Assembly (NCBI GenBank): GCA_026393905.1
Contig: JAPKZH010000643.1
Coordinates: 1 to 38,922, forward strand
Origin: Candidatus Aminicenantes bacterium
GTDB taxonomy: Bacteria > Acidobacteriota > Aminicenantia > Aminicenantales > UBA4085
DNA length: 38,922 bases
Direction: 5' to 3'
Shown here piece after piece: positions 8,793-31,883 of the stretch. Position 1 is the first letter of the stretch. Every line of letters starts with the position of its first letter. The position numbers and the translations under genes were made by a program. The notes under the pieces were generated by a model that worked only from the letters and a program-made list of their open reading frames with translations, was not told where the DNA came from and made no database searches.

Positions 8793-8977
8793 TGCTTCTG
8801 AGGACAGGCGGCGAGACAGCCCTTCATTCTAAACTCCCGGATCATTAATACTATTCCGGCCAAAAAAACGTTGCGGATGAAACGATTTGACCGCCGCCGC
8901 GATTTAATAATCGTGAGCCGAATTATGTTAAAATAGATGTTTAGGAGCCGGAGATTAACGAAAAAACATCGGAATAT

Positions 8978-9886
8978 ATGGCGAAAGGCGCCATCTTTCT
9001 TGTTTCTTTGATCCTTCATATTGCCGGCTTTAGCGTTGTCCTCCATCTTAAATTCACCTACAAGATTTATGACCTAAAGCAGAAGTCGGTGTCGGCGTTC
9101 ATCGTGCCCAAGGAAAAAATCGTCGCGCCGAGGAGAGACGGGCTGGCCGCCGGAATTCCTGCCGGGGAGGATTTAGGGGGAAAAGAAATCGTCGGCGGAG
9201 CAGGTTCAGGGGCCGGTCGAGCCGCGGTCGGGCAAAAGCCGGCGGAATCGAAGGCCCCTTCCGGAGGTCAAGCCGCAAGGCCGGGGGGAGCCGCCCCGGC
9301 CGTCCAAAGCCCATTCGAGGTCAAAGGGGAAATCAAGGAATCACGGAATTTTTCCTCTGGGTTTGGCCTGCTCATTCCGCCGAAATCCAAGCTCGACCTG
9401 ACAAAAACCAAAGGGAGTCTTGAGGATTCCTATCTTCCCCGGGACAAATACCAGGTCAGGTCGGACATTGATTTCTCCAAATATCTTTATCGAGGCGCGG
9501 CCATTTCAGGCACAACCGGCGGGGGAGGCCGGCCCGGCCGTCCGGGAAAGAAAGGAGCCCAGGCTTTTATCGGAGGCGCCGCGCCCGCGAACGTCCAGAA
9601 ATATAACTTTTCGCCATGGGCCAATGCCGTGATGAATCGGATCCAGAAGAACTGGTCGATTGCCGCTCCCGCTGATTTCGCCTGGAAGGGCGAAGTCGGG
9701 ATTATCGTGGTGATCGGGAAGAACGGGAACCTGACCTTGATCGAAGTGATCGCCTCATCCAAAATCGATGCCTTGGACCAGGCGGCCATTCGGGCGCTCG
9801 AGTTGAGCCTGCCCTTTCCGGCCCTGCCGGCCGATTTTCCCAATTCCAGCCTTGACGTCTACTTTATTTTCCAATATGGCTATTAA
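8978..9886 (+). CDS. TonB/TolA C-terminal domain protein
   Basis: N-terminal TM with S-x3-H motif (SLILH); G/A/P-rich linker; C-terminal 'RIQKNW...SSKIDALDQAAIRAL...PFPALP'. Confidence 0.8.
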   Translation: MAKGAIFLVSLILHIAGFSVVLHLKFTYKIYDLKQKSVSAFIVPKEKIVAPRRDGLAAGIPAGEDLGGKEIVGGAGSGAGRAAVGQKPAESKAPSGGQAARPGGAAPAVQSPFEVKGEIKESRNFSSGFGLLIPPKSKLDLTKTKGSLEDSYLPRDKYQVRSDIDFSKYLYRGAAISGTTGGGGRPGRPGKKGAQAFIGGAAPANVQKYNFSPWANAVMNRIQKNWSIAAPADFAWKGEVGIIVVIGKNGNLTLIEVIASSKIDALDQAAIRALELSLPFPALPADFPNSSLDVYFIFQYGY

Positions 9887-10931
9887 AGAGAAGCTTGCTT
9901 TCATCCTCCTGCTGGCTGTCTCCGTCCAGGCCCTGCCGGCTCAATGGAAGGACGACGTAGCCGGCATTTTTCGGGGGACGCGGGATCTTAAAAGCATCGT
10001 GGAATTGGTCCTGCCCCAGCTCGACAAAATGGACGCCGCCGATAAGGCCGACGCCTCGGGGCTGCTGGCGTTCTGTTTTAACAAGCTGAATGACAAGACG
10101 AACGAGATCAAATGGATCGCCGAGTATTTCGAGACCTACCGGGCCGGGGACTCGGGATACGCCTTTATCGACCTGGTGGGCCAGGCCGAGGTGATCGCCT
10201 TCCTTTCCAGCTGGAAAAGCCGCTATCCGTTCGTTCCGGAAATAGCCCTCATCGCCGGCGTCGGAGGCAACCCGATCATTATTCAAGGCATTCTGCCCCT
10301 CGGGTTCGACCTGACCGCCGATGCCTATTATAAATTTTCCGAGGGATCGACCGTCCTCAAGGCCGGCCTTTTCAAATCCGGCGCGAATATCCTCAGCCTG
10401 GATGCCAATGATCTTTTCTTAAAGCCGGGGAGGCACACGTATTTTCTGGAGCTCAAGGCGGGCGAGCTCGTCCTCAAGAAGGAACTCGACTTAGACATCG
10501 AGGTGTCTTCTCCCTGGAACGAGCCGAAAGCCCCGAGCCTGAAAAGGAAGCCCCTCTATTACAGGCTATCCATGTATGTCGGAGGGGAGCTGGTGATGGC
10601 CAGCCAGAAGATGGAGAATGCCGTGCCCCTCAAGCTGGACGTCAAGCCGAACCAGAATCCGTTCGGCTACAAACCGGACTATTATGTCACGCGCAATAAT
10701 CCCGGAAGGACAGATTACTTCTCGATCTCCACCGCCATCGAGCTGCTCTACCAGCTTTTCAAGGCCCTCCTGAAAAAGAAGGATGCGAAAGCCGAGCCGC
10801 CGAAAATCCAGCTGGTTCAAGAAATGACGATCTCCAACAAGCAAAAGGATGTGGACGGCAATGACCGGGAGACCAAGGTCTCGATCAAGCTGAAGACGAA
10901 AAACCTTCCTTACGTGTTGAGCGTCCCGTAA
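9876..10931 (+). CDS. Secreted hypothetical protein
   Basis: ATG 9876 overlaps the end of the TonB gene; signal peptide MAIKEKLAFILLLAVSVQALPA-QW; 351 aa, no recognised family. Confidence 0.75.
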   Translation: MAIKEKLAFILLLAVSVQALPAQWKDDVAGIFRGTRDLKSIVELVLPQLDKMDAADKADASGLLAFCFNKLNDKTNEIKWIAEYFETYRAGDSGYAFIDLVGQAEVIAFLSSWKSRYPFVPEIALIAGVGGNPIIIQGILPLGFDLTADAYYKFSEGSTVLKAGLFKSGANILSLDANDLFLKPGRHTYFLELKAGELVLKKELDLDIEVSSPWNEPKAPSLKRKPLYYRLSMYVGGELVMASQKMENAVPLKLDVKPNQNPFGYKPDYYVTRNNPGRTDYFSISTAIELLYQLFKALLKKKDAKAEPPKIQLVQEMTISNKQKDVDGNDRETKVSIKLKTKNLPYVLSVP

Positions 10932-12036
10932 GGGAATGGAGAACATCTTCCACCCGGGCCAGGGCGGTGCGCAAGGCCTGCTCTTCGACGCCGAAGCCGA
11001 TTCGAAGAAAACGGTCCATTTCAAAGAGGTCGCCCGGGGCCAGGAAAACGCTTTTTTCGCGGATGATTTTTAAGGCCAGCTCCGTGGAATTTACGGGCAG
11101 GCTATAGCGGACAAACGTGATCGCGCCGGCCTTGGGAGGGATAAAGGCAAACGTGCCGTCCTGCTTTTTGAGCCAGGATTCCAGAATCGCATAATGATGA
11201 GTCAAGATCTCCCGGGTCCGCTTGAGGATGCGGTCGCGGACGCCGGGCGAAAGGGCGGTGCGTGCCAGGCGGTCGCTCAGGGCGCTCGGCGAGATGGTGG
11301 TGTAATCGTGGTAGGGTCCTATCTTTTGGATCGTGTCCATCGGCCCGACGATCCAGCCGATTCTCAACCCGGGCAAGCCGTACGCTTTGGAGAGGCCGTT
11401 GACGGAAATCACCTTGTCGTAGAGCCCCCAGAACGACGGCGTCCTTGGCCCGATCCTTTCTGCGTTCTGATAGACCTCATCCGCCAAGATCCAGGCGCCC
11501 GAGGCTTGAGCCAGGTCGATGATCGTCTTCATCTCATCTTGACTGAGGACCGCGCCGGTCGGATTGTTGGGATTGGTCAGGATAATGAGCTTCGTTTTTC
11601 GGGTGACCTGTTTTTTGAGCTCGTCGAGGTCCGGGGCCCAATGGCGTTCCTCCCGGAGATGGAATGTCTTGACCTTGGCCCCGAATCCGCGCAGCAGCCC
11701 CCACATCTGCATGTAGTTGGGAAGCTCGAAGATGACTTCGTCGCCGGGTTCGATGAGCGCCCACATCAAGAGATAGTTGGCCTCGGTGGAACCAGTCGTC
11801 ACTTGAATCTGTCCCGGGTTTAGGCCCGGGTATGAGGCGGCGATCTGTTCCCGGAGTTCGGGCGTTCCGTTCGTCTGGCTGTAGCCCAAGCCCAGCCTGA
11901 GAATTTCCTGGAGCTCGTCGGCGGGGACGAATTCCTCGAGGGAAAGGGCATGGACGCCGCTTTCGGCGAGGTTGTAATCGACCACGTTCTCCCACGTCGA
12001 CTGCATCCGTTCCAGTTTAAAGACTTCGATGTTCAT
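10885..12036 (-). CDS. Class I/II PLP-dependent aminotransferase
   Basis: NPNNPTG, ADEVY and GLSKAYGLPGLRIGW motifs. Confidence 0.92.
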   Translation of the reverse strand: MNIEVFKLERMQSTWENVVDYNLAESGVHALSLEEFVPADELQEILRLGLGYSQTNGTPELREQIAASYPGLNPGQIQVTTGSTEANYLLMWALIEPGDEVIFELPNYMQMWGLLRGFGAKVKTFHLREERHWAPDLDELKKQVTRKTKLIILTNPNNPTGAVLSQDEMKTIIDLAQASGAWILADEVYQNAERIGPRTPSFWGLYDKVISVNGLSKAYGLPGLRIGWIVGPMDTIQKIGPYHDYTTISPSALSDRLARTALSPGVRDRILKRTREILTHHYAILESWLKKQDGTFAFIPPKAGAITFVRYSLPVNSTELALKIIREKSVFLAPGDLFEMDRFLRIGFGVEEQALRTALARVEDVLHSLTGRSTRKEGFSSSA

Positions 12037-12081
12037 GGCTGAACCTCATAGGATGTTATTCATGAAGGAGATCCTAAATTT

Positions 12082-12909
12082 CTATATTTCCACCTTAAAA
12101 AAGCCCTTCAGGCCGAAGCCGAAGATGATGGACAGGGCGAAGAAGACGATGAGCCAGTGAATATGCCAGCCGAAAAGATTCATGCCTGGGGCGGGATAGA
12201 CCACCTCGACCGATTGGATCCCCAGCTTTTTAAGGAGCGGCCTTTCGCCGGGATTGAACAGCTGGTCAAAAAAGCTCGAACTGGCTTTAACGGCGGAAAT
12301 CTTGGAAAGTCGGTGTTGCTCCACCGCGACTTGTTTGGGAAAGGACTGATTCTCCCATCGGAAGGTAATGGTGTGGACGCCCTTGTCGAGGGCCCGCAGA
12401 CGCCAATCGATTTCCCGGAGTTCTTCGATTCTCAGGGCGGGAGTTTCGACCGAGATGCCGGCGGGCGGTTCGATCGCAATTTCTATCTGGAAAGGATTTT
12501 TGCCTTCTTCGAGCTTGATTTTCAGGACGGCCTCTTGCCCGACATCCAAAGACCGGTACCCGAACCAGAGGTTGAGTTGGATGAGGATGAGAAGGACCGG
12601 AACGATCATGACCAGCATCGGCTTGGCGGAATAGCTGAGGTATTTCAGGTTGGCGAGTAGGATGTGGCCGTAAGCCTTCAAAGACACTCGCATGTTGTCC
12701 TTATAAAGGCGAAGCTCCAGCAGGTGGGCTTTAATCTTGTTTTTGGCCTTTCGGATGCCTTCCTGGTTGGAGGTGTGGCGGAAAATAAAGAGCATCAACA
12801 GGCCTGTCAGGAGAGAGATGAGGATCATCCCGAACCACGGGCTTGCCTGGCGGAACGGCAGAAAAATGATTTCAAAGATCCTGCCGAAGGCCGCGTTAAA
12901 TGTCCACAT
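12082..12909 (-). CDS. Membrane protein resembling the DUF106/EMC3/TMCO1 (Oxa1 superfamily) family, with an inserted beta-rich domain
   Basis: TM1 (PWFGMILISLLTGLLMLFIF), coiled coil (TSNQEGIRKAKNKIK...), TM2 (SAKPMLVMIVPVLLI), ~125-aa soluble insert, TM3 (HWLIVFFALSIIFGFGLK). Start set to ATG 12909 behind GAAGGG. The CDS is secure; the family call is by eye. Confidence 0.65.
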   Translation of the reverse strand: MWTFNAAFGRIFEIIFLPFRQASPWFGMILISLLTGLLMLFIFRHTSNQEGIRKAKNKIKAHLLELRLYKDNMRVSLKAYGHILLANLKYLSYSAKPMLVMIVPVLLILIQLNLWFGYRSLDVGQEAVLKIKLEEGKNPFQIEIAIEPPAGISVETPALRIEELREIDWRLRALDKGVHTITFRWENQSFPKQVAVEQHRLSKISAVKASSSFFDQLFNPGERPLLKKLGIQSVEVVYPAPGMNLFGWHIHWLIVFFALSIIFGFGLKGFFKVEI

Positions 12910-12939
12910 CGTTCCCTTCACTCAAAATGTAAAATGGCA

Positions 12940-13131
12940 TCAGGAGATATATCCCAGCCCCTTTAGTTTTTTCTTGATCTCTTCCTCGGAATCGGACTCT
13001 TCGATCTTGGCGATCTCTTTTTCCAGGCAGTGGGTGATGAACTCCTCTACCGAGGAATATCCGGACATCTCGGCGTATTTCCGAACCTTGTCCATCAGGC
13101 TTTTATCCAGCTTGATCTTCTCTTTGCCCAT
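12940..13131 (-). CDS. Small ribbon-helix-helix (CopG-like) protein with C-terminal EEEIKKKLKGLGYIS motif
   Basis: 63 aa from ATG 13131 (SD GAGGAG); KIKLDKSLMDKVRKYAEMSGYSSVEEFITHCLEKEI fits a beta-alpha-alpha RHH pattern. Confidence 0.8.
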   Translation of the reverse strand: MGKEKIKLDKSLMDKVRKYAEMSGYSSVEEFITHCLEKEIAKIEESDSEEEIKKKLKGLGYIS

Positions 13132-13143
13132 ACGTCCTCTCCT

Positions 13144-13175
13144 CGTCATGGCGAGGCGCTTCGCTCGCGATGACA
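13144..13175. repeat. GTCAT-type palindromic repeat, copy A (head-to-head hairpin)
   Basis: CGTCATGGCGAGGCGCTTCGCTCGCGATGACA; the arms GTCATGGCGAG/CTCGCGATGAC pair with one mismatch. Confidence 0.65.
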
Positions 13176-13179
13176 TCTA

Positions 13180-15168
13180 TCAAAATATCGTTTTCCCGAT
13201 TAAATCCCTGGGCTTTTCGACGCCGAAGACGTCGAGGATCGTCGCCGTGAGATCATAGAGGGCGGGGGCTTCAGCCAGGATCGGGCGATTGGCGACCAGG
13301 ATCCCGGTGAGGATCTCCGCCGCGCCCATGTGGTCGCCGCTCCATTTTCCCTTGTTGTCCTCGAGCACGTTCTTTTCCATTTTTCCGAGCGGCGAGCCGA
13401 AGGAAATGCGATAGCCGCGGTTGAATCCCAGGACGATATCGGGCGCCTCTCCGACAAATGGACCGGAATAGACATCCTTGGCGACATAGGCCTTCAATAA
13501 AACCCTCTGACCCGTCTTGGGATCGACGAATTCTTCCAGCTTTTTTGCGATTTCCCGGACCAGGTTCTCTTTTTCGGCGCCGTCTCCGACGATGCCTTCG
13601 GCCTCCCGGCCCCTCTGATTGATATACAAGCCGTTCAGGCCTACTCCGAAGGCTTTCGTCCTCGACCAGTCCGTGTCGGGAAAAAGATTTCCGGTTTCCA
13701 GTTTGAAGGGATTGGTCAGGACATGATAGCCGTTTTCCTTGAGCCAAGTGTTCAAGCTGAAACTGCGGCTGAAAGGATTGAATCCGTGGTCGGACATGAC
13801 GATGACAATCGTATCTTTGTCGATTTTATCCATGGCCCTGCCCAGGATCGAATCCGCTTCCCTGTAGATGTTTTCGATGACCTTCCCGTATTTGGCGGCC
13901 AGCCCCGCATCATAAGCGGGATGCTTCTCATCGAGCAGCCGCCAGAACATGTGCTGGCGCTGGTCTGTGCTCGAGATGTAATAAAAGAGAAGCCCGGAAT
14001 CAAACCGCCCCAGTTCGTCGTCCAGCATAACCTTGCTTTCTTGAAGGACGAAATCATCCTGTTCTAGGAATTCGCCTTCATCCAGGATGTCATTATCGAG
14101 GGCGCTGGTATCGGCAGGAAGCCCTTTGGTGAAAAACGGGCCGAATCTTTTTTCGAGCTCCGCGGCATAGGCTGACGGGGTGGAAAGGGGAAGGGCAGGA
14201 TCGGCCGGGTCGATGTTGATTGAGGAGACATAGAGCTTGAAGTTGGGCCGGACTTCCTTGAGGTAGAACATGCAGATGCCGCTCACGCTTTGGGTTGGAA
14301 TCAGGGAAAAGCGGACCCTCTTCCAGCCGCTCCATTCTTTTTCTTTTAGGATGAATTCCTGGTCCTGGATGGCGACCTTGGCCACCGGGTTTTGCGGGTC
14401 GAGGAAGACCTTGAACTCGATCTCGGCTTCCGGCCGGTCTTTTTTAAAGGTGTTGGCAGGACCCGGGAGCTTGGAATCCACCCGGTTCCCGATGACATAA
14501 ACCGGATGGACGGATCCTCCGCCGATATCCTCTTTGATCTCTTTAGGCTCAGTTGTGTAATACCTGAAAGAGTTGTAATTGCCCAGGAGATCCGGCGTCC
14601 CCAGTCCGGAAAATGTTTTTTGCTTGGAGGGAACAGGAGGATAGTTGGCGGGCATTTTAAAAATCGCCGCCGGGATGTCGTGCTCCTCCAGGATCTGCCA
14701 GAAAGCTTTGCCCTGGCGGAGGTTCCGGACCTCTCCGCCTTTTATGGGAAGGACCCAGTTTCCGACGCGGATCGTCTTTTTCGCTTCTTCGGTTAAGGCT
14801 GCGGAAAAAACAGGCCAATAGTTTTTGGGATCGCGGTGGATAAAATCGAAAATGCCGTGGCCGCCCGGGTTCGTGCCGGCGATGAAATTGGACCAGGCGA
14901 CGGGGCTCTGGGGCGGGATGCTCGTGCCGAGCCTGCGGAATCCTCCTTGTCCGATGAGACGTTTAAAGGCGGGCAGCTTGCCTTCGCTCATCCAGACATT
15001 CGTGAGATGCGGGTCCATCCCGTCAAACCCGAGTATCAGGACTTTCTTGTTTGTGGCCGTTTTGCCAAAGGTTCGAGTCACAAGATTCGAGCGCGATTCC
15101 AAGGCCAGCAGGGAGGCGGCCCCTAGGCTATATTTCAAAAAATCCCGGCGATGGATCGGCTCGCTCAT
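13180..15168 (-). CDS. Alkaline phosphatase superfamily (type I phosphodiesterase/NPP, COG3379-like) protein with Tat signal
   Basis: HRRDFLK twin-arginine motif; GFDGMD, PPQSPVAW (Ser nucleophile), TDQRQH, MSDHG and WSGDH. Confidence 0.9.
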   Translation of the reverse strand: MSEPIHRRDFLKYSLGAASLLALESRSNLVTRTFGKTATNKKVLILGFDGMDPHLTNVWMSEGKLPAFKRLIGQGGFRRLGTSIPPQSPVAWSNFIAGTNPGGHGIFDFIHRDPKNYWPVFSAALTEEAKKTIRVGNWVLPIKGGEVRNLRQGKAFWQILEEHDIPAAIFKMPANYPPVPSKQKTFSGLGTPDLLGNYNSFRYYTTEPKEIKEDIGGGSVHPVYVIGNRVDSKLPGPANTFKKDRPEAEIEFKVFLDPQNPVAKVAIQDQEFILKEKEWSGWKRVRFSLIPTQSVSGICMFYLKEVRPNFKLYVSSINIDPADPALPLSTPSAYAAELEKRFGPFFTKGLPADTSALDNDILDEGEFLEQDDFVLQESKVMLDDELGRFDSGLLFYYISSTDQRQHMFWRLLDEKHPAYDAGLAAKYGKVIENIYREADSILGRAMDKIDKDTIVIVMSDHGFNPFSRSFSLNTWLKENGYHVLTNPFKLETGNLFPDTDWSRTKAFGVGLNGLYINQRGREAEGIVGDGAEKENLVREIAKKLEEFVDPKTGQRVLLKAYVAKDVYSGPFVGEAPDIVLGFNRGYRISFGSPLGKMEKNVLEDNKGKWSGDHMGAAEILTGILVANRPILAEAPALYDLTATILDVFGVEKPRDLIGKTIF

Positions 15169-17300
15169 GATTTCTTCTCCTTGGCCGCGGGCGCGATTCC
15201 CGGCTTGGTCAGCAAAGACCGGCCGTCCATGTGGGCCGGCGGCTCCAGCCCGAAGAGCTCGAGCACCGTCGGCGCGATGTCCATGATCGAAGGATTTTTG
15301 GCATCGATTTTCCGGCTGCAGAAAAGTACGCCCGGTACCCAGGCCGGGTCGATGCAGTGGTCGCCGCTCCAGGCCTTGGTGTTGTCCTCGAAGACGGCGG
15401 GCGTGATTTTTCCGGTCACGCCTTCCCAGGAAGCCCGGTAGCCGGCATTGTATCCGATGATCAAGTCCGGCGAGTTTTCTTTATAAGGTCCATGATAGAT
15501 TTCGTCCCGGTCATAGACCCGGCTGACGGCTACCACTCCCTTTTCCTCGTCCTTCAGTCCGGTGAGTTTTTTCAGGAGTTCGGCTTTCAGCGCTCTTGTC
15601 TCGTCGCCGGCTCCGACCAGGCCCTTGGCCTCGCGGCCCTTCTCGTTGACATAGAGCCCGCCCAAGCCCAGGGCGTAGGCCTTCGTCCTTTCCCAGTCCA
15701 CATCCCTGAACCACTCCTCGCTTTCGGCCTTGCCGTTTTTCAAGAACAGATAGCCGGTTTTATGGAGCCAGGAATTGAGGTTGACGCCGCGTTTGAACGA
15801 CTTGAAGCCGTGGTCGGACATGATAAAAAGCGCGCTCTTCTCACCCATTTTTTTCCAGAGGCGGCCGACCATCTCGTCCATGTTCCGGAAGAGCTCTTCG
15901 ATGACCTTATCGCTCATCAGGGCCCGGCCGCTTTTGAGCGCCGGGTGGTCCTTGTCCAGGTATCTCCAGAACATATGGGAAATGCTGTCGGTCGTCTCGA
16001 ACACGCAGATGACCAGGCCCTTCTTGGTCTTGGCCAGGGCATTGTCGACCATGGCTTCCCATTCGCGGTGGTTCGAGTAGGTCAGCTCAAGAAAAGCCTG
16101 CTCGCTCAGCGCACCTTCATTGAGCGCCCAGGTGTCGTTGGCTTCCCCGAGGGTGATAAAGCTCCCCAGGAGCTTCGACAGATAGACCGAATAGATGAAT
16201 GGATGGGAGATGGGCAGGGCGGGCTTTTCCGGATCGATATTGAGGGGCGTGAGATACATCTCGAAATACGGCCGAACCTGGGAGACATAAAAACGGCAGA
16301 TGGCCTTGATTTTCATGCCCAGGCCGGGGCGAAATGTCAGGCGAATCCAGGGCGAAAATGTTTCTTTTTTCAGCATGATTTTCTGCCCCGAGACTTCGAT
16401 CCGGGCTTGTTCTTTTTCGGGCTCGATCGAAATCCTCATCGGCAGCCGGATTTCTTCCGCTTTTTTGAGGAGCGAGTTGTCCGGCCCCGAGATGTATGTC
16501 TCGACCCTGTTCCCTTTCACCTCGACGGGAATGGCGATCCCGCCCTCGCGCTTTTTGATCTTATCCGGGTCCGAAGTGTAAAAGGAGAATGTTCCCTGGC
16601 TTCCTTTGAGGTCGGGCGCGCACATCCCGGACAGCAGATGCCCCTTGAATTTTTCAGGCGGAAATGTGATCGGCACCCTCAGGACGGTGCTGAAAATTCC
16701 ATGGTCGCCCAGGATCTTCCAAAACGGAACACTTTTCCGCAGGCCCCTGATTTCCGGCTTGGAAAGCGGGACGTTGTATTTTCCGAGAGAAAAGACTCTT
16801 TTGGGCTTTCCGATCCGGGCTGAGGAGAGGTCGGGAAGATAGGTCTTCGGGTCGCGGCTGAGAAAGTCGAAGATATTATGCTTGGACGGTTCGGAGCCGG
16901 TCATGAACGAAGACCAGGCGACGGGAGAGATAGCCGGGGTCGTCGTTTGGAGACGGGCATAGGCCCCTTCCTGTTTGAGCTTCGAAAGATGGGGCAATTT
17001 GCCATCGGCCATGTATTTTTCGGCGAGCTCCGGGGAGAGCCCGTCGAGCCCGATGATGACCACCTGCTCGACCTGGCTTTTCTTGTACGCTTTTTTCCCT
17101 CTGATCAGGCGAAAAAAGAAGCGGAAAGGCCAGGCCACGAAGGAAAAAATGGCCAGAAAAAAAGTCAGGAAGAGGACGAGAAATGAGGAAAGAAAAGCGA
17201 ATCCGGCTCCCGGGCCGATATAGGCAGCGAGAGGAAGGCCTGATAAGAAGAATAAAAGAATAACCGCTCCGATTTTTGCCAGGCGATTTTTCTTGTCCAT
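15165..17300 (-). CDS. Membrane-anchored alkaline phosphatase superfamily (NPP-like) protein
   Basis: From ATG 17300: signal peptide, AYIGPGAG, TM helix, basic stretch, then GLDGLS, PAISPVAW, TDSISH, MSDHG and WSGDH. The stop overlaps the next ATG (ATGA at 15165-15168). The start is uncertain because the frame is open back to 17480. Confidence 0.88.
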   Translation of the reverse strand: MDKKNRLAKIGAVILLFFLSGLPLAAYIGPGAGFAFLSSFLVLFLTFFLAIFSFVAWPFRFFFRLIRGKKAYKKSQVEQVVIIGLDGLSPELAEKYMADGKLPHLSKLKQEGAYARLQTTTPAISPVAWSSFMTGSEPSKHNIFDFLSRDPKTYLPDLSSARIGKPKRVFSLGKYNVPLSKPEIRGLRKSVPFWKILGDHGIFSTVLRVPITFPPEKFKGHLLSGMCAPDLKGSQGTFSFYTSDPDKIKKREGGIAIPVEVKGNRVETYISGPDNSLLKKAEEIRLPMRISIEPEKEQARIEVSGQKIMLKKETFSPWIRLTFRPGLGMKIKAICRFYVSQVRPYFEMYLTPLNIDPEKPALPISHPFIYSVYLSKLLGSFITLGEANDTWALNEGALSEQAFLELTYSNHREWEAMVDNALAKTKKGLVICVFETTDSISHMFWRYLDKDHPALKSGRALMSDKVIEELFRNMDEMVGRLWKKMGEKSALFIMSDHGFKSFKRGVNLNSWLHKTGYLFLKNGKAESEEWFRDVDWERTKAYALGLGGLYVNEKGREAKGLVGAGDETRALKAELLKKLTGLKDEEKGVVAVSRVYDRDEIYHGPYKENSPDLIIGYNAGYRASWEGVTGKITPAVFEDNTKAWSGDHCIDPAWVPGVLFCSRKIDAKNPSIMDIAPTVLELFGLEPPAHMDGRSLLTKPGIAPAAKEKKS

Positions 17301-17388
17301 GCGAACCGCGGAATGGAGGCCGGCAGATCTGATCTTTTGGATCATTTCGGACCAAGCGCAGAGTCTCCTCTTGCCGCGCGGAAGGCAC

Positions 17389-17422
17389 GAGATTGCCACG
17401 GCCCAAGGGGCCTCGCAACGAC
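17389..17422 (-). repeat. GTCAT-type palindromic repeat, copy B
   Basis: Reverse complement reads GTCGTTGCGAGGCCCCTTGGGCCGTGGCAATCTC, matching copies C-E. A degenerate opposite-facing partner may lie at 17341-17367. Confidence 0.7.
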
Positions 17423-17479
17423 TGCGTCGGATGGCCATAGCCCAAAGCGCCTGGGAACGACGTCTTGTCTGATCTGTCA

Positions 17480-18775
17480 TTAAAAGCGATCCAAAATGAT
17501 CTGGGAAAGATCCGATATCGAGAGGTCCTGTCCGAAATCGTTTTTGGCCAGGAAAAAGGCATCATCCCAGGTGTGCATGCCCTGGAGCCCGGGCGTGCGC
17601 CCGAAGATCTCTTTTTTCTTGACCGAGCCTTTCAAGTCAAAACCCGGCTCAGAAAGGACGATCAGGTCCGGACCTTGAGAAACAAGCGGGCCGGAATAGA
17701 TGTCTTTGGCAAGGAAGACTTTCCGGATGATTTTTTTCCCCTCATACTCCAGCTTTTCCAGCTTCCGGACGATCTCCTCTTTGAGGGATTTCTGCTCCCC
17801 GGCGCGGACCGAGCCGTTGGGAAACTTATCTTTATAATTTAAATAGATGCGGCTGGGATCCAGGGCGAAGGCGATGGACTTGGCGGATATGTCTTCCAAG
17901 CCCTTTGGCGAGGAATTGGCGAACTTGAGGTATTTTTCTTTCTCGAGCCAGGCGTTGAGATAAACTTCCTGTCGGATGCCCGTGAAGCCATGATCGGAAA
18001 GAAAGAAGATATTTTCCTCGTCGCCCGCCGTTTTGCGGAAGGAGGAATATATTTTATTGACGAGCCGGTCGATCTGGCGGTAATAATCGAGAAAATTCTG
18101 GTGGTGAGGGTGGTTCGGGTCCTCATAGGCGTTCCAGAGAAAGTGGTGGAGCCTGTCGGTCCCCGTGATGACGAACTCAAAATAGTCCCATTCCTCCTCC
18201 CAAAAAAGGTTCAAGGCCTTCTGACGGCCCATGAGCGTTTTGATCAGTTCCTGCCAGAGAAAGCCGTGGTTCTCCCGGGCTTTGAGCGTGTCGATATCGA
18301 TCTGGTAGCCCATCTGTTCCAGGTCGACCTTATATGAAGGCGGATAGACGGCCTTGGCCAGCTCGATAGCCACGAACCCGGAGATGAGCACCCCGTTGAT
18401 TTTCCGGGCCGGGTAAGTGGACGGCTGGTTGATGATGATGCATTTTTTGCCTTTTTCGCTTAGGCCGTCCCAAAAAGTCGGCACCTGGACATCTAAAAAA
18501 TTCGGAAAGCGAAGGTCATAGGAGCGGGGTTTTAGGTCGGTAAACCCGAAAATGCCGTGCGTTCCCGGATTGGTACCGGTCATGAAGTTGGTCCAGCTGA
18601 CGGCAGAGATCTCGGGAAGGCTGGCCTTCATTTTATGGAGATGACCGGAATCGATGATCCTCCCCAGAGCCGACATGATCCCCTTCTTGGCCAGGTCGAT
18701 GAGAAGGCCGTAGGGAACGCCGTCCAGGCCGATAACGCAAACGCGTTTTTCATTTTTTTTCTTGAAGATAGACAT
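17480..18775 (-). CDS. Cytoplasmic alkaline phosphatase superfamily (NPP-like) protein
   Basis: No signal peptide; GLDGVP, PEISAVSW, TDRLHH, LSDHG and GMH motifs. Confidence 0.9.
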   Translation of the reverse strand: MSIFKKKNEKRVCVIGLDGVPYGLLIDLAKKGIMSALGRIIDSGHLHKMKASLPEISAVSWTNFMTGTNPGTHGIFGFTDLKPRSYDLRFPNFLDVQVPTFWDGLSEKGKKCIIINQPSTYPARKINGVLISGFVAIELAKAVYPPSYKVDLEQMGYQIDIDTLKARENHGFLWQELIKTLMGRQKALNLFWEEEWDYFEFVITGTDRLHHFLWNAYEDPNHPHHQNFLDYYRQIDRLVNKIYSSFRKTAGDEENIFFLSDHGFTGIRQEVYLNAWLEKEKYLKFANSSPKGLEDISAKSIAFALDPSRIYLNYKDKFPNGSVRAGEQKSLKEEIVRKLEKLEYEGKKIIRKVFLAKDIYSGPLVSQGPDLIVLSEPGFDLKGSVKKKEIFGRTPGLQGMHTWDDAFFLAKNDFGQDLSISDLSQIILDRF

Positions 18776-18820
18776 AAACCGGCCTATTATAGCACCAAAA
18801 GCCGAGTTGTCAATTAAACG

Positions 18821-18911
18821 GGGTCAAAGCTACACATTTGACACATTTTATGGGTGTGGCGCCGGAAAAAGCCCTTTTCCATGGATTTTGTCAGATGTGT
18901 AGCTTTGACCC
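18821..18911. repeat. GGGTCAAA-terminated inverted-repeat element (MITE/REP-like), copy 1
   Basis: GGGTCAAAGCTACACATTTGACA (18821-18843) and TGTCAGATGTGTAGCTTTGACCC (18889-18911), 22/23 complementary. Confidence 0.8.
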
Positions 18912-18941
18912 TGAATTCGAGATGCTTTCGGTCAAAAGCAA

Positions 18942-19631
18942 CTATCGGGGCAAGCTGACGGCTTTGAGCACCTGGGCGAGAAATTCCTCTTCCGGGACGG
19001 CCCCTTCGAAAGAGATGGTCTCGTTGACGACGGTTTTAGGGACTCCGTACACGTTGAATCGATTGGCCAGGTGGGGAAATTCCGTCGACTCCACCATATC
19101 GGCCTTAACCAAAGGAGATTCCAGGGAAAACTGATGTCCCAGACGGACGGCCTTGGTGCAGTAGGGGCAGGTCGGCGTGACAAAGACCTGGATGTGGATG
19201 TCTTTATCGACGGACTTGAGGGCATCTTTGGTTTGAGCGGAAAGCTCGGTTCTTCGCTTTGAGACATCCGCGATGGCTTCGACAAGGCTCGTGTATTCGT
19301 ATCCGGAAGGGATCCCATAGAAGCGTATCCCGTAGTCTTGATCGCCCATGATCACGGTCGCGGGGATCTTGTCGATCTTGTATTCGGCGGCTTTTTCTTT
19401 ATCCGCCGTATAGTCATAGACCAGGAGTTCGATTTTATCGGAAAGAGCTTTGACCTCTTCCAAAAGCTGCTTGGTTTCTTTGCAGAAGAAGCAGGCCTGT
19501 CCTTTGAGCGAGTCGGGATGGACGAGCCGGCTCGGTTCCTGAGTGAAATAGAGGATGGTGACTTTGTTTTCGAGCTCGCCGTCGAATTTTTTCTTGGTGG
19601 CCTCGCGGACTTCTTGGCTGAGGATTTCCAT
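18942..19631 (-). CDS. Protein disulfide oxidoreductase (PDO; two thioredoxin folds, AhpF-NTD-like)
   Basis: CFFC and CPYC motifs; IRFYGIPSGYEY; GVPKT; SD AAGGAG. Confidence 0.9.
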   Translation of the reverse strand: MEILSQEVREATKKKFDGELENKVTILYFTQEPSRLVHPDSLKGQACFFCKETKQLLEEVKALSDKIELLVYDYTADKEKAAEYKIDKIPATVIMGDQDYGIRFYGIPSGYEYTSLVEAIADVSKRRTELSAQTKDALKSVDKDIHIQVFVTPTCPYCTKAVRLGHQFSLESPLVKADMVESTEFPHLANRFNVYGVPKTVVNETISFEGAVPEEEFLAQVLKAVSLPR

Positions 19632-19730
19632 GATATTTCTCCTTTCTCGGCGAAGAGGATTATACCCCGGTTCAGATTGACTTTAAAGCGTGTCGTTGAT
19701 AAAGTGATAGCCCTGAGAAACCGCCCGGCT

Positions 19731-21131
19731 ATGATAAAAATCGACAAGCTTCTCGAGTTCCTGGAAGCTCAATACCGGAAAAAAACAAAGAAAAGCCTGC
19801 AGATTTATCGGCGGGCCCAGCGGGTGATGGTCCAGGGCGGCAGCCATTCCCTGCGCCTCTTTTCGCCCTATCCCTTCATCATCACCAGGGCCAAGGGGCC
19901 CATGGTCTATGATTTCGACCGGAACGCCTATATCGATTACTGGCAGGGCCACTATGCGAATATCCTGGGCCATAATCCCAAAGTCCTGACGGATGAATTC
20001 AAGAGATTCAGCCTGGAAGACGGTTCGTTGCATACGGGGTTCGAAGGGGAGAGCCAGATTAAGCTGGCCGAGCTCCTGCTCAAACAGCTCGGTCATAAGG
20101 ATTACAGGATCCGGTTCACGACTTCAGGCACCCTGGCCACCATGTATGCCGTCATGCTGTCCCAAGCCTACACGGGACGCGATGGCGTTCTGAAAATCGG
20201 CGGCGGCTGGCATGGGGCGTCGCCCTATCTGCTCAAAGGCGTCAAATATTATCCCCAAGCCGGCTTCGAGCAGGCCGAATCGGCCGGAGTTCCCAAGGAG
20301 ATCCTGCGAAAGATCTTTACGACCCGTTTCAATGATGGGGACGACCTGGAAAAAGTTTTGTGGAGAAAGGGCAGTGAGATCGCCTGCTTGATCGTCGAGC
20401 CGTTTTTGGGCGTCGGCGGATTCCTGGCCGCTTCGCAAGAATATCTGGACCTGGCCAGGGCCTTGACGGAAAAATACGGCATCGTCCTCATCTTTGACGA
20501 GATCATCTCAGGATTCCGCTTTTGTCCCTCCGGGGTTCAGAAACTCTATGGGATCGAGCCCGACCTTTCGACGTTCGGAAAGCTGATCGGCGGCGGCCAC
20601 GCCGTCTCCGCGGTGGCCGGCAAATCCGAGATTCTCGAGAAGTGCTTGCCCCAAGGCTCGGCCAAGCTGCGGGTGCTTTTTGAAGGGGGGACCTTTTCTT
20701 CCCATACCCAATATATGAGGGCCGGCTATGTCATGCTGAAATCGCTTGCCGACCAGGCCTCTCGGATCTATCCAAAAATAGCCGCGACAGGGGAAAATCT
20801 TCGGCGTCGCGTCGAAGAGGTTTTCGGCGACCGGGGAATCGAGGTCAAATGCACGGGCGACGGAAACGATGTGGTCAAAGGAAGCTCGCTCTTCATGGTG
20901 AATTTTCCGCTGAAAAGAGTCCGCTACACGAGCGCTGAGGATGTCTGGAATCCGGCCTTATCTCATGTCCGTCTGAAAGAAGAAGTCCTGAAACTGGCTT
21001 TGCTCACGGAAGGCGTCCATGTCGTCCACGGCGGCGGCGCGGCGTCGGCAGCCCATGAAGAGAAACACGTCGAGCAGACGATCGCGGCCTACAGCGAAGC
21101 CGCCAGGCTTTTCAAGAAATATCTTTACTAA
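19731..21131 (+). CDS. Class III PLP aminotransferase, glutamate-1-semialdehyde aminomutase (HemL)-like paralogue
   Basis: ILGH, RFTTSGT, LIFDEIISGFR, TFGKLIGGG and GGTFS motifs. Start moved to ATG 19731 because the longer ORF overlaps the PDO gene in antisense. Confidence 0.85.
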   Translation: MIKIDKLLEFLEAQYRKKTKKSLQIYRRAQRVMVQGGSHSLRLFSPYPFIITRAKGPMVYDFDRNAYIDYWQGHYANILGHNPKVLTDEFKRFSLEDGSLHTGFEGESQIKLAELLLKQLGHKDYRIRFTTSGTLATMYAVMLSQAYTGRDGVLKIGGGWHGASPYLLKGVKYYPQAGFEQAESAGVPKEILRKIFTTRFNDGDDLEKVLWRKGSEIACLIVEPFLGVGGFLAASQEYLDLARALTEKYGIVLIFDEIISGFRFCPSGVQKLYGIEPDLSTFGKLIGGGHAVSAVAGKSEILEKCLPQGSAKLRVLFEGGTFSSHTQYMRAGYVMLKSLADQASRIYPKIAATGENLRRRVEEVFGDRGIEVKCTGDGNDVVKGSSLFMVNFPLKRVRYTSAEDVWNPALSHVRLKEEVLKLALLTEGVHVVHGGGAASAAHEEKHVEQTIAAYSEAARLFKKYLY

Positions 21132-21188: not shown

Positions 21189-23900
21189 TCACTCCCCATC
21201 CGGGTTTTCGACGCCGTCCCCGGATCGTTGCCCCTTTCCCGAAATTTTTTCCAGTCGAAATTGAAAGGCGCCGCTTTGGGTGCTTAAAATGATTCGTCTG
21301 TCTTCGATCCGCTGAAAAGACAGGCCCTCAAGATTCCTGAAGCGCCCGCCTTTTCGCCAGAGGACCTGTCCGCCTTCTTTAAAATCACCGTTTCTCCACA
21401 GCAGCGGAATATGGATTTCGGCTTCGACCCCAACGGGAATCCCGAGGTCGAGCTCGAAGCAATCTTCCTTCCTCCTCCAAGAGACACGGATGTCGCCTCG
21501 AATCGTCTTGAGCGAGGCCGAGGCGGAATCCAGATTCCGGAAGAGCGGCGGCTTGACCAGGATTTTTTTCCAGCCGGGAACCAGGCAGTTCACCCCGGCC
21601 ACGGTTTTATAAAACCAGGCGTCCACGCTGCCCAGCATGATATGGTTGTGGGAGTTCATGCCGCCGCCTGTGATTTTCTCCCAGCGTTCCCAAAGCGTCG
21701 TGGCGCCTTCCCTGACCATATAGCCCCAGCCTGGGTAGCTTTTCTGGGTGGCCACCCGAAAGGCCGTTTCCGCATGTCCATTTTCCGTCAGGACATCGAG
21801 AAGGTAGCGCGTGCCGAGGATGCCGGTATCGAGATGGTAATCCTGGTCGCTGACAACGCTGCGGACAAGCGCATCGAGGACTTTGTTCCTTTTTCTTTTC
21901 GGGACCATGTCCAGATAAAGGGGCAGGACGTTGGATGTCTGGCTGGCTATCTTTTCGACAGGGCTCATCCGGACGGCTTCATAGGCGTCTTGCTTCAGGA
22001 ATCTTTTATTGAAAGCGGTTTTGATGTCCCGGGCCAGACGGGCCAGGCGTTTTTCGTCGTCCGGTTTCTTAACAATACCGGCCATCTTGGAAAGGAAAAG
22101 CGTATCGTGATAGAAGAACCAGGTCGAGGTGAGCTCGACGGTCGTTTTTTTGGGAGGGATGCTTCCCGGGGGACACCAGTCGCCGTATTTGCCCAATTTA
22201 TCGATAATACAGCCTTTGGAACTGCGGTGGAGGAATGACACGTATTTTTTCATGGCTTCAAAGTGCTTTTCCAAAACTCTAGTGTCTCCATAATAGAGAT
22301 AAAGATTCCAGGCGAGCGTGATGTAGGCCGAGCCCCAGGCGGGATCGGCCGGATAGAGGCGGCCGAGATAGGGAGGGACTGTGTCCGGGAGGCTGCCGTC
22401 TTTTTTCTGGGCGTTCTTGATATCTTGAAGATACTTGGTGTAAAAAGCGGCCATATCAAAATTCAGGATGGCCTCTTCCGCCGAGAGATGGGCGTCGCCC
22501 AGCCAGCCGTGCCTTTCATCCCTCTGCGGGCAATCCGTCGGGATGCTCATCAAATTCGAAAGCTGCCCCCACCGGATATTCCGGTGGACGCGGTTGATTA
22601 GACGATTGGCACAGCGAAAATCCCCTCCGGGTTCGACATCCGTATGAACGAAACAGCCCTCGACATCGAGGATCTTCGGCAGTTTGGGAAGGCCGCTCAC
22701 TTCCGCATACCGAAAGCCATGCTGGGTGAAGCGCGGCTCATACCGTTCGGCGCCTTTCCCTTTGAGGACATAGACATCCGTGGCCTCTGCGTTCTGATTG
22801 GGCGACGTGTTCAGCCGTCTGTCCTCATGGATGAGCTCGGCGTGCCTGAGCGTCAGCGCCGTCCCGGCCCGACCTCGAACCGATATTCCGACCCAGCCTG
22901 AAAAATTCTGTCCGAAATCGAAGATGAGGCGTTCCGGTCCCGGGCACCAGGTCTTTTTCGGCTTCAACCTCCGGACGACCTTGATCGGAGGCAGCATCTG
23001 GGAACGGAGCGGCGCGCCTCTCACGCAGACCGCCCGTCCCTGGAATATCTTCGGCTCGAGCCGTCCGTCGCAGCGCTCGCCGAAATAGAGGCCGTTTTCC
23101 ATAAGCGGTCCATGCCCGGATTTCCAGGATTCATCCGTGCCCACGACCTGCCGTTTTCCGTCTTCAAACTCCATTTCGATTTGGGCGATCACCCTCGGGC
23201 TGCCGTAGCCGAAATTGGCGATATGCCGGCCGTTTCCCAGGCTGATGAGGGCCTCGTTTATCGGCTTCAGCATTCTCGTGATGTCAAAAGTCGAATAGAG
23301 AGCCGTCTTGGCGTAATCGGTCTGGGCCGGATCAAGGACATGGTCGCCGACTTTCTGTCCGTTGAGAGACAGCTCATAGAACCCGAGTCCGCAGATATAA
23401 ACCCGGGCCCTTTTAAGCCCCCGCCCCATCCGGAATTCCTTTCCCAAATAGATCGCCCGTGTCTGGACATAATCCCCCCGGAATTTTCCCTGCAACACGG
23501 TCCCCCTGGACCGGAATTCAACGGGTTTTTTCAGGCTGATCCATCGCGCCTGCCAATCCGACTTGTCCAGCAGCCCCATTTCAAAAAAAGCGGTTTTACT
23601 ATAGGCACTGGGACGGCCGTTCTTGTCCCACCAGCGAACGCGCCAATAATAGCGCCTCCGGCTCTCCAACTTTTTTCCGGCGTATTCGATGTGAAAATGC
23701 CTATCTGTATTTATGCGCCCGCTGTCCCAGCAATCGCCGGCTCCCCGCGCCGTCGACGAGACGATGATCTCGTAAGCGGAAGGCTTTTGCCAGCGCTCGA
23801 AGTGGCGGAGAACCCAGGACAAGCGCGGCTTGGGGATATCGATTCCGATAGGATCCTGGAGATATTCACACCTGAGGCGCAGGGGAGGGGGAATGGTCAT
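21189..23900 (-). CDS. GH78 alpha-L-rhamnosidase (no signal peptide)
   Basis: LRCEY..PIGID..PRLSW, DFGQN, IPTDCPQRDER.GWLGD, GATTLWERW and SHNH motifs. Confidence 0.93.
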   Translation of the reverse strand: MTIPPPLRLRCEYLQDPIGIDIPKPRLSWVLRHFERWQKPSAYEIIVSSTARGAGDCWDSGRINTDRHFHIEYAGKKLESRRRYYWRVRWWDKNGRPSAYSKTAFFEMGLLDKSDWQARWISLKKPVEFRSRGTVLQGKFRGDYVQTRAIYLGKEFRMGRGLKRARVYICGLGFYELSLNGQKVGDHVLDPAQTDYAKTALYSTFDITRMLKPINEALISLGNGRHIANFGYGSPRVIAQIEMEFEDGKRQVVGTDESWKSGHGPLMENGLYFGERCDGRLEPKIFQGRAVCVRGAPLRSQMLPPIKVVRRLKPKKTWCPGPERLIFDFGQNFSGWVGISVRGRAGTALTLRHAELIHEDRRLNTSPNQNAEATDVYVLKGKGAERYEPRFTQHGFRYAEVSGLPKLPKILDVEGCFVHTDVEPGGDFRCANRLINRVHRNIRWGQLSNLMSIPTDCPQRDERHGWLGDAHLSAEEAILNFDMAAFYTKYLQDIKNAQKKDGSLPDTVPPYLGRLYPADPAWGSAYITLAWNLYLYYGDTRVLEKHFEAMKKYVSFLHRSSKGCIIDKLGKYGDWCPPGSIPPKKTTVELTSTWFFYHDTLFLSKMAGIVKKPDDEKRLARLARDIKTAFNKRFLKQDAYEAVRMSPVEKIASQTSNVLPLYLDMVPKRKRNKVLDALVRSVVSDQDYHLDTGILGTRYLLDVLTENGHAETAFRVATQKSYPGWGYMVREGATTLWERWEKITGGGMNSHNHIMLGSVDAWFYKTVAGVNCLVPGWKKILVKPPLFRNLDSASASLKTIRGDIRVSWRRKEDCFELDLGIPVGVEAEIHIPLLWRNGDFKEGGQVLWRKGGRFRNLEGLSFQRIEDRRIILSTQSGAFQFRLEKISGKGQRSGDGVENPDGE

Positions 23901-23920
23901 AAGACGTTCTCCTCGGAGGT

Positions 23921-25372: not shown

Positions 25373-25373
25373 T

Positions 25374-27134: not shown

Positions 27135-27216
27135 TCGTAGTATCCCCGCTTTATTAGGCCTTTTTAACAATAGAATAAAAGAAAAAAAATATCAACGAAA
27201 AATTATGGATTCGGTC

Positions 27217-30269: not shown

Positions 30270-30284
30270 GCCGTCCTCCGTCTG

Positions 30285-31760: not shown

Positions 31761-31785
31761 TCCGTCTCCTTTAATACCACGATTC

Positions 31786-31883
31786 GGGGTCAAACCTCAA
31801 CATTCAACAAAAGGACCGGGGTCAAACCTACTCGTTACGCATGTTCCCCTGGAGTATTGTGCGTAACGAGTAGGTTTGACCCC
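31786..31883. repeat. GGGGTCAAA-terminated inverted-repeat element, copy 2, plus an extra end
   Basis: Perfect 24-bp IR GGGGTCAAACCTACTCGTTACGCA (31818-31841) / TGCGTAACGAGTAGGTTTGACCCC (31860-31883); extra GGGGTCAAACCT at 31786-31797. Confidence 0.85.

Follow-up and report, generated by a model that had tools for sequence, protein, structure and literature searches.

A five-gene cluster of Candidatus Aminicenantes as a candidate membrane-centred enzyme module with a possible link to sulfation

The window analysed here is a stretch of 38,922 nucleotides (nt) covering positions 1 to 38,922 of the forward strand of contig JAPKZH010000643.1, from the Candidatus Aminicenantes bacterium assembly GCA_026393905.1 (Acidobacteriota; Aminicenantales). 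Five co-directional minus-strand genes at 12082-18775 encode three paralogues of PF01663, the type I phosphodiesterase/nucleotide pyrophosphatase (NPP) family of the alkaline-phosphatase superfamily (here NPPa, NPPb and NPPc), a small ribbon-helix-helix (RHH)-like protein that ends in a conserved 'LGY tail', and a DUF106/Ylp1-like membrane protein. We hold it an even proposition that the five genes make up a single operon for a membrane-centred enzyme module conserved in Acidobacteriota. On a similarly level balance, the module may serve sulfation fed by 3'-phosphoadenosine 5'-phosphosulfate (PAPS), through transfer or hydrolysis of sulfate esters or phosphosulfates on an envelope-directed substrate at both faces of the membrane. 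Computation gives the conservation, the family membership, the topology signals, the predicted RHH-NPPb interface and the sulfation genes nearby; what the enzymes catalyse, on which substrate, and whether anything crosses the membrane, as in the relay of the preliminary description, is our inference. A module of no assigned function spans a phylum that is dominant in soils and sediments.

Conservation of the cluster and sulfation genes around it

The five genes keep their order in all 20 Aminicenantales loci that were fetched (20/20), with apparent frameshifts in NPPa in L014 and in NPPc in L009 and L025. The membrane protein is present in 39 of 41 relatives, and of 301 Acidobacteriota genomes sampled, 88 have a full-length match to its profile, a tally that takes in one unpublished genome (G089). 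Forty loci outside Aminicenantales were fetched around membrane-protein matches and scored by tblastn and by the tail pattern; these contain the membrane protein in 40 cases, NPPc in 39, NPPb in 37 and RHH in 36. L119, L128 and L152 lack both NPPb and RHH, and since all three come from one family we count this as a single event, while L122 has NPPb and RHH and lacks NPPc. NPPa adjoins the cluster in eight of the 40 (L112, L125, L126, L135, L136, L144, L149 and L150). NPPa is outside the universal core, which is NPPb-NPPc-RHH-DUF106. That the genes form a conserved unit, as the preliminary description had supposed, is borne out by this gene-neighbourhood comparison, in every locus at the level of the order and for the core across the phylum.

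A search of 1.84 billion representatives yielded 3100 clusters at E <= 0.001, with 1096 remaining at E <= 1e-30. A scan of genome contigs found 293 relatives, and the 80 loci kept are mostly titled Aminicenantes or Aminicenantales, the remainder being titled Acidobacteriota or Acidobacteria, 'uncultured Eubacteriales', 'uncultured bacterium' and, once, 'Clostridiales'. Beyond Acidobacteriota there are two leads, and leads only: a protein of an NCBI-labelled Phycisphaerae metagenome-assembled genome with 47% identity to a divergent member, and one Atlas cluster labelled mostly Planctomycetota (score 0.85).

Sulfation genes were sought by tblastn within about 10 kb of the core in the 40 non-Aminicenantales loci. 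A sulfotransferase homolog was found in 23, directly flanking the core in many of them (e.g. L111, L114, L115, L117, L118, L124, L134, L137, L139 and L145), and 10 loci carry sat, cysC, cysQ or a PAPS-synthase fusion; taken together, 28 of 40 have a sulfotransferase or some PAPS-type gene. The preliminary description had guessed at a phospho or sulfo group as what the system processes or transfers, and for the latter these flanking genes now supply context. NPPa and a sulfotransferase do not occur in the same locus (0/40, with eight and 23 loci, respectively); the hypergeometric chance of zero overlap is about 3e-4 on the assumption of independent loci, which these are not. In five of the eight NPPa-type loci sat/cysC lies directly upstream of NPPa on the matching strand, and an NPPa ortholog is absent from the five sulfotransferase-type genomes that were searched. 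The genomic background of PF13469 is one to six matches per genome of 3.4-8.7 Mb (five genomes), an undercount because known adjacent copies were missed. Pfam searches of flanking ORFs (open reading frames) of distant loci identified PF13469/PF00685 sulfotransferases, PF00884 sulfatases, a CysQ-like gene and a sat-cysC fusion; 41 selected ORFs of the 140 listed were used, because ORF picking chose antisense frames in high-GC loci. An assignment of the flanking sulfotransferase to the tyrosyl-protein type was dropped, as in the PDB it matches only cytosolic SULT2B1, and that weakly (E 0.006), which gives no support either way.

In the genome of the window, sat and cysC occur on contig C263 (L129), where positions 6830-10358 carry the cassette RHH'-sat-NPP'-cysC; RHH' is a second small tailed protein and NPP' a 457-aa cytosolic PF01663 protein. 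An epimerase and a UDP-sugar dehydrogenase follow this cassette. In the 19 relatives' loci examined, the adjacent genes include cysC in 19, sat in 16 and RHH' in 17; where RHH' is missing, in two loci, a contig end cuts the locus.

The proteins of the module

All three enzymes exceed the Pfam cut-off of 23 bits for PF01663. NPPa (17480-18775, minus strand, as are all the features of the cluster below) has 431 aa and matches profile positions 1-342 with 119.7 bits (E 2.8e-34); it is predicted to be cytosolic and has neither a signal peptide nor a large insert. NPPb is a protein of 711 aa read from its conserved start, M61 (15165-17300), within a frame that is open up to 17480 (15165-17480, 771 aa); it scores 116.5 bits (E 2.6e-33), and comprises an N-terminal anchor, a predicted cytoplasmic catalytic domain and a beta-rich insert. 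NPPc (13180-15168, 662 aa), predicted to be exported, scores 111.1 bits (E 1.1e-31) and has its beta-rich insert at about residues 200-315. Both NPPb and NPPc are matched in two stretches. They are paralogues with 39% identity over 627 aa, their common insert included, and NPPa, which has no insert, is more distant (28%).

Catalytic motifs are intact in appearance in each enzyme. Invariant in 19 NPPb sequences are D86-G87, S125, D438..H442, S495-D496-H497-G498 and D647-H648, and in 17 NPPc sequences D49-G50, D402..H406, S459-D460-H461-G462 and D612-H613; S88 of NPPc is at least 90% conserved (17 sequences), being T in one ortholog. Equivalent motifs were read from the translation of NPPa. The metal-ligand roles of individual residues are those we presume from NPP structures. 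The AlphaFold2 (AF2) model of NPPc (pLDDT 74.7, pTM 0.79) gave 163 Foldseek matches at E <= 0.001, the best rows all being of this group, namely SPAP (5xwk, 2.3e-7), NPPs, PafA and PhnA; the TM-scores, at about 0.36 of the query, are kept low by the insert and by loops of low confidence. Searches of the PDB gave nothing at E <= 0.01 for the single sequences of NPPa and NPPc and nothing at E <= 0.001 for the NPPc profile, and NCBIfam gave only rows far below threshold. The three alkaline-phosphatase-superfamily paralogues of the preliminary description thus stand, with PF01663 above its cut-off and the motifs invariant in NPPb and NPPc orthologs. Matches to PF01663 occur at 24 places on about 15 contigs of this genome, and the family is strongly expanded there.

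The N-termini of the three enzymes differ. That of NPPa has no signal. That of NPPb consists of a basic start, a variable, signal-like hydrophobic segment always ending in Ala (17223-17300), the invariant membrane segment Y27-R60, YIGPGAGFAFLSSF...WPFR (17121-17222; 24 invariant columns in 19 sequences), and a Lys/Arg-rich stretch. A strict search for the anchor motif recovered 14 of the 20 loci in the first phylum-level set. Because the Lys/Arg-rich stretch follows the membrane segment, by the positive-inside rule the catalytic domain of NPPb should face the cytoplasm whether the first segment is a cleaved signal, with which its invariant final Ala is compatible, or forms the first arm of a hairpin. 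At residues 7-12 (15133-15150) NPPc carries the twin-arginine motif RRDFLK, followed by a hydrophobic stretch; all the Aminicenantales orthologs compared (17/17) keep R7, R8 and F10, and TatC is encoded in the genome, so that by sequence NPPc is a candidate substrate of twin-arginine translocation (Tat).

The export signal of NPPc varies by lineage, being of the twin-arginine type in Aminicenantia and some relatives and lipoprotein-like in many others. Outside the class most orthologs lack the twin-arginine, about 10 of 40 having a true RRxF[LIV] when inspected by eye, and many non-Aminicenantia N-termini (loci L109-L128 and L134-L153) show, again by eye and with no predictor, a hydrophobic stretch followed by Cys as in lipoproteins. 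The pairing of NPPb inside with NPPc outside seems to be required by the system, because the NPPb anchor is kept phylum-wide while the NPPc export signal changes type. Three different locations had been proposed at the outset, and the predicted locations do differ; what has changed is that the enzyme then described as having a signal peptide plus a transmembrane (TM) anchor is now predicted to hold its catalytic domain in the cytoplasm, not outside.

The membrane protein was first called as an ORF of 279 aa (12082-12921), and comparison of orthologs places its start at M5 (12082-12909, 275 aa). It is predicted to consist of TM1, a cytoplasmic coiled-coil hairpin, TM2, a periplasmic domain and TM3. 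A profile of 19 orthologs has a sole match in the PDB, the archaeal YidC-like DUF106 protein MJ0480 (5c8j; E 2.5e-9), in which query residues 7-124 align with chain residues 8-133 through TM1, the coiled coil and TM2; the single sequence matches MJ0480 with E 0.0026. The Oxa1/EMC3-like assignment made from the sequence at first is upheld by this profile match, which makes the protein a DUF106/Ylp1 relative in the Oxa1 superfamily. Two relatives (P0077 and P0100) have precomputed PF01956 matches, and the JGI (Joint Genome Institute) label for relatives is 'DUF106 family'. The AF2 model (pLDDT 86.5) has helices at 24-46, 49-68 with 73-116, and 252-266, and strands at 126-250; its membrane core has three helices, and a coiled-coil hairpin on the cytoplasmic side links TM1 to TM2. 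The strands form an immunoglobulin (Ig)-like beta-sandwich of approximately residues 120-250 between TM2 and TM3 (12160-12552), predicted to be periplasmic, and Foldseek on the model returned only Ig-like folds, e.g. S-layer SbsC domains (4uid_B, E 2.7e-4). A standard YidC is also encoded in the genome. Passages of PMC5868721, PMC8662606 and PMC5898192 describe DUF106/COG1422 as archaeal and eukaryotic, and members from those groups are reported to pair with a small partner through their last helix (preprint 10.1101/2020.12.20.422553).

The RHH-like gene was first called at 12940-13176 (78 aa); from ortholog comparison the probable start is M16, giving 63 aa (12940-13131). Invariant among 19 orthologs are K5 and K7 on the predicted ribbon strand, whose invariance is compatible with DNA contact, then G24, Y25, S27, E30, F31 and H34, and finally K54-K55-L56-K57-G58-L59-G60-Y61. 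An acidic stretch and the C-terminal tail, EEEIKKKLKGLGYIS (12943-12987; K54-Y61 invariant in 19/19), form the end of the protein, the tail reading LKGLGYIS. With the strict pattern, a tail of this kind was found at the end of a small RHH-type ORF beside the core in 13 of 20 and 15 of 20 distant loci (two sets). RHH_1 (PF01402) matches seven of the 19 orthologs at E <= 0.05, and the RHH profile found nothing significant in the PDB.

A complex of the NPPb catalytic domain (residues 66-700) with two RHH copies was predicted from custom alignments alongside three controls. Each of the three runs gave an ipSAE of 0.76, whereas the best control reached 0.02; contact agreement between runs was at least 91% and the partner pLDDT at least 77. 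That mark is reached by 58 of 80 solved complexes and by two of 110 mismatched pairs, a calibration that is only rough because custom alignments and two partner copies were used. On the RHH side the predicted interface takes in residues 21, 23-27, 30, 31, 34 and the tail 54-63, and so covers the invariant G24, Y25, S27, E30, F31 and H34; on the NPPb side it takes in H442 of the D-x3-H motif, 647 and 649, which flank H648, and residues 386, 390-391, 232-237, 604-606 and 688-690. The prediction, a type of check that had been suggested beforehand, supports a model in which RHH binds NPPb with its tail near the metal site. The preliminary description had taken the RHH protein for a regulator; the RHH-like assignment is retained, at a Pfam score below the cut-off, but with NPPb as its predicted partner through the invariant tail the protein would be more than a regulator.

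The tail recurs elsewhere. When ORFs of at least 40 aa in this genome were scanned with L-[KR]-x-L-G-Y-[ILVM], nine contained it: RHH and RHH' (33% identity over 70 aa, E 0.006), four sulfatase-family (PF00884) proteins with the motif after the catalytic domain and in two of them at the very C-terminus, one ORF beside a PF01663 match on the 1.5-kb contig C469, and two chance-like matches (contigs C60 and C94). PF00884 genes ending in an LGY tail lie within about 10 kb of the core in nine of the 40 loci. PF00884 proteins with ...L-[KR]-x-L-G-Y-[ILV] were seen on contigs C456, C479, C223 and C357 of this genome (L130-L133) and in loci L111, L112, L116, L125, L126, L136, L137, L144 and L145; the motif is C-terminal or just before a TPR domain, and the usual Cys/Ser-x-Pro-x-Arg signature reads T-L-P-S-H in these proteins. 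In L125 (about 855-1450, plus strand) the tail ends an ORF that starts just after a cysC tblastn match (855-1370, plus strand) and continues from it, resembling, by coordinates only, a C-terminal extension of adenosine 5'-phosphosulfate (APS) kinase. The CysC of the window's genome itself ends ...LKEFGYL, L110 has a second small tailed ORF adjoining cysC, and L136 (about 17928) and L149 (about 17600) have ORFs of 267-291 aa ending ...QKLRSLGYM near NPPa-type clusters. A short C-terminal motif, ...L-K/R-x-L-G-Y-I/L-x, in this way ties otherwise unrelated proteins to alkaline-phosphatase-superfamily enzymes.

At the DNA level, the ORF coordinates confirm the five co-directional genes first noted and the 4-nt ATGA stop/start overlap of the NPPb and NPPc genes (15165-15168); a stop/start overlap of the RHH and membrane-protein genes is found in six of 20 relatives (L009, L011, L012, L018, L021 and L028). 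A promoter-like site, TTGACA, a 16-nt spacer and a TG-extended TATAAT (18786-18813, minus strand), matches the consensus at 12 of 12 hexamer positions, a consensus match only, and is the sole perfect site in 11800-19800. The operon mRNA may be leaderless or nearly so, because only 11 nt separate the end of this extended -10 consensus from the NPPa ATG (18775) downstream. Terminator-like sites are not enriched, with 16 found and a shuffle mean of 12.6. Upstream of the conserved NPPb start lies a 60-codon Arg-rich open stretch (17301-17480, minus strand) that is kept within the genus only; its ATG shares one base with the NPPa stop, and it may be an N-terminal extension or a spacer.

Several neighbours are frequent within the order, and none of them is kept outside it: a class I/II aminotransferase (10885-12036, minus strand) 46 nt downstream of the membrane-protein gene, a 359-aa ORF without Pfam match (9852-10931, plus strand) that converges on the aminotransferase and overlaps it, and upstream of the cluster a two-domain thioredoxin-like protein (18942-19631, minus strand). 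Farther off, a rhamnose-utilisation set (21189-31793, minus strand; alpha-L-rhamnosidase, L-rhamnose isomerase and FGGY kinase), accompanied by HD-domain, HEAT-repeat and PMT_2/TPR proteins, looks unrelated to the cluster.

Proposed mechanism and competing explanations

In the mechanism that we propose, NPPb would be tethered at the inner face of the membrane by its invariant N-terminal anchor and NPPc exported, here by Tat, so that the paralogues would work at opposite faces. The DUF106-like protein would be their membrane partner, which most likely inserts or holds the NPPb anchor and may also dock NPPc. RHH would bind the catalytic domain of NPPb with its LKGLGYIS tail reaching the active-site region, and would either gate NPPb or present a substrate tyrosine to it. 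This is expected because the layout is that of RHH antitoxins, in which a DNA-binding dimer carries an enzyme-binding tail, and RHH probably also autoregulates the operon as a repressor of its transcription. In Aminicenantales, cytosolic NPPa would take the place held by the sulfotransferase in most other lineages; if it truly replaces that enzyme, it would represent a new enzyme class for sulfuryl transfer. Sulfate chemistry in the alkaline-phosphatase superfamily has a precedent in an arylsulfatase reported to desulfate caerulein and estrone sulfate (abstract of PMC12421950). With few proteins, the module would also open to test how molecules outside the cytoplasm, where there is no PAPS, come to be sulfated in bacteria.

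A bolder form of this mechanism, which we regard as improbable, is that the module is a route carrying activated sulfate across the cytoplasmic membrane. In the cytoplasm a sulfotransferase, or here NPPa, would load PAPS-derived sulfate onto the invariant tyrosine of the LGY tail or onto a lipid carrier; NPPb would handle the load at the inner face, the Oxa1-like protein would pass it through or alongside the membrane, and NPPc would use it outside. If this were true, Ser-nucleophile enzymes of the alkaline-phosphatase fold would act as sulfuryl transferases, and the LGY tail would be a tag of a new kind, portable and directed to active sites, that RHH, sulfatase-family proteins and the cysC-linked ORF of L125 have in common.

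Several points weigh against the sulfation mechanism and its parts. Sulfotransferase, sat, cysC and cysQ are all missing within about 10 kb in the Aminicenantales loci, the window included (0/21), and the sulfation link of the window operon is indirect for that reason; the cluster-associated sulfotransferase also has no ortholog by tblastn in this genome, which is 91% complete. By gene content the window operon is therefore not a PAPS-dependent sulfation cassette, and since related clusters are (28/40), the module may work with sulfation although this operon is itself no such cassette. The enzymes belong to a phosphodiesterase family rather than to the sulfatase family, with Ser/Thr and not formylglycine as nucleophile. 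Locus counts overstate the support, because loci from related genomes are not independent. Among the assignments, Pfam TAT_signal on NPPc reaches 16.9 bits (cut-off 22.7), RHH_1 on the window protein 18.8 to 19.6 (cut-off 20.5) and EMC3_TMCO1 (PF01956) on the membrane protein 16.8 (cut-off 27.1), all below their cut-offs. The Oxa1-type structural match is the top VIA-align row, 7tut_8 (a multipass-translocon chain of 177 residues that we take to be TMCO1; Z 8.0, 135 aligned, model range 19-275), and is tied with unrelated helical rows. Topology is derived throughout from rules applied to sequence, and the complex score is the model's own confidence and no measurement.

The competing explanation that survives best, though we judge it doubtful, makes the enzymes ordinary phosphodiesterases or pyrophosphatases for organic-phosphate turnover, with NPPc a scavenger outside, the DUF106-like protein no more than a dedicated insertase for the short NPPb hairpin and RHH no more than a transcriptional repressor, and with neither coupling across the membrane nor a link to sulfate. 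Membership of PF01663 and the fold matches to NPPs, PafA, SPAP and PhnA fit it directly, as do Tat export, which is usual for metal-loaded phosphatases, the absence of sulfation genes within about 10 kb in the window, and the invariance of K5 and K7 of RHH, which is what contact with DNA through the predicted ribbon strand would lead one to expect. With two helices and an outer loop of 7 residues, such a hairpin would moreover be a typical substrate of Oxa1-type insertases, and such simple substrates are mentioned in passages of PMC5868721. Scavenging, however, leaves unexplained why there is a paralogue at the cytoplasmic face and why the NPPb anchor is invariant phylum-wide, and those invariant RHH residues that are not on the ribbon fall within the predicted interface with NPPb. 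The flanking sulfotransferase and PAPS genes of 28 of the 40 other loci also speak against it, as does the position of a PF01663 paralogue, which here is flanked by sat and cysC and has cysC as its neighbour in all the relatives' loci (19/19). No Pho-type genes were seen in the window.

It is unlikely, in our estimate, that the module is instead a phospho-group transferase for an envelope lipid or polymer, of the kind of LtaS, EptA or OpgB, in which NPPb and NPPc would each move a headgroup or hydrolyse a lipid-linked pyrophosphate in their own leaflet, the Oxa1-like protein would be a scramblase for the lipid intermediate, and the sulfation genes would adjoin the core because the polymer is sulfated as well. 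The alkaline-phosphatase superfamily does include membrane-associated phospho-group transferases, and the paired inside/outside topology, the Oxa1-type fold of the membrane partner and the PF00884 and glycosyltransferase genes flanking some loci would suit one. NPPb and NPPc nevertheless lack the multi-helix membrane domain of LtaS, EptA and OpgB, genes for lipid or polymer synthesis are not conserved next to the core, and the docking of the RHH tail at the active site would go unexplained. A toxin-antitoxin-like or defence module, with NPPb a harmful nuclease or phosphodiesterase checked by RHH as antitoxin, can be set aside as very improbable: an RHH domain with a C-terminal tail at the active-site region of its partner does resemble RHH antitoxins, but PADLOC matched none of the five proteins (0/5), the chromosomal position is stable with vertical-looking conservation across order and phylum, the pair comes with an exported paralogue and with a membrane protein, and mobile-element context was not seen in the window.

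Comparison with known systems

The view taken at the outset, that no characterised pathway has this architecture, agrees with our literature searches, in which the listed titles and abstract openings showed nothing on the gene cluster or on bacterial DUF106 proteins. Each part comes from a known superfamily, and the combination matches no described system.

The enzymes resemble Xanthomonas NPP, ENPP1-7, PafA, SPAP and PhnA in PF01663, in the two-metal-ligand motifs and in fold, with matches at E of about 1e-7 to 1e-5. They differ from these in that they have no sequence-level match to any solved structure, in having Ser rather than Thr as nucleophile, in the beta-rich insert of about 190 aa in NPPb and NPPc, and in that NPPb and NPPc form a predicted inside/outside paralogue pair with a small protein partner. 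The membrane protein is nearest to archaeal Ylp1/MJ0480 (DUF106, PF01956, COG1422) and to eukaryotic EMC3, TMCO1 and GET1; it has profile homology to MJ0480, a three-helix core and a cytoplasmic helical hairpin. It comes from a bacterium, whereas passages of PMC5868721 and PMC5898192 present DUF106 as a family of archaea and eukaryotes; an Ig-like domain of about 130 aa separates its TM2 from TM3, the genome has a normal YidC besides, and the gene lies with enzyme genes, not next to secY or ribosomal genes. Through the module, a DUF106/Ylp1-type Oxa1 protein would for the first time have a functional setting in bacteria.

RHH type II antitoxins and CopG-type repressors are likewise small proteins with an N-terminal RHH-like domain and a C-terminal tail, here predicted to lie near the active site of the partner. 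In our case the partner is an alkaline-phosphatase-superfamily enzyme and not a known toxin, the RHH gene is the fourth of five and is often translationally coupled to the membrane-protein gene, and the LGY tail recurs at the end of sulfatase-family proteins and of the L125 ORF that continues from the cysC match. Cassettes that combine PAPS supply with a sulfotransferase, of which the NodPQ-NodH type is an example, have their likeness in the sat, cysC, cysQ and PF13469/PF00685 sulfotransferase genes beside or inside the cluster in related genomes; here sat and cysC lie elsewhere (contig C263), and the conserved four-gene core has no counterpart in known cassettes. What the module adds to the known systems is a bacterial branch of DUF106, the Ig-like insert, the NPPb anchor motif, the LGY tail motif, a predicted docking of RHH on an enzyme of the alkaline-phosphatase fold, and the mutually exclusive occurrence of NPPa and sulfotransferase.

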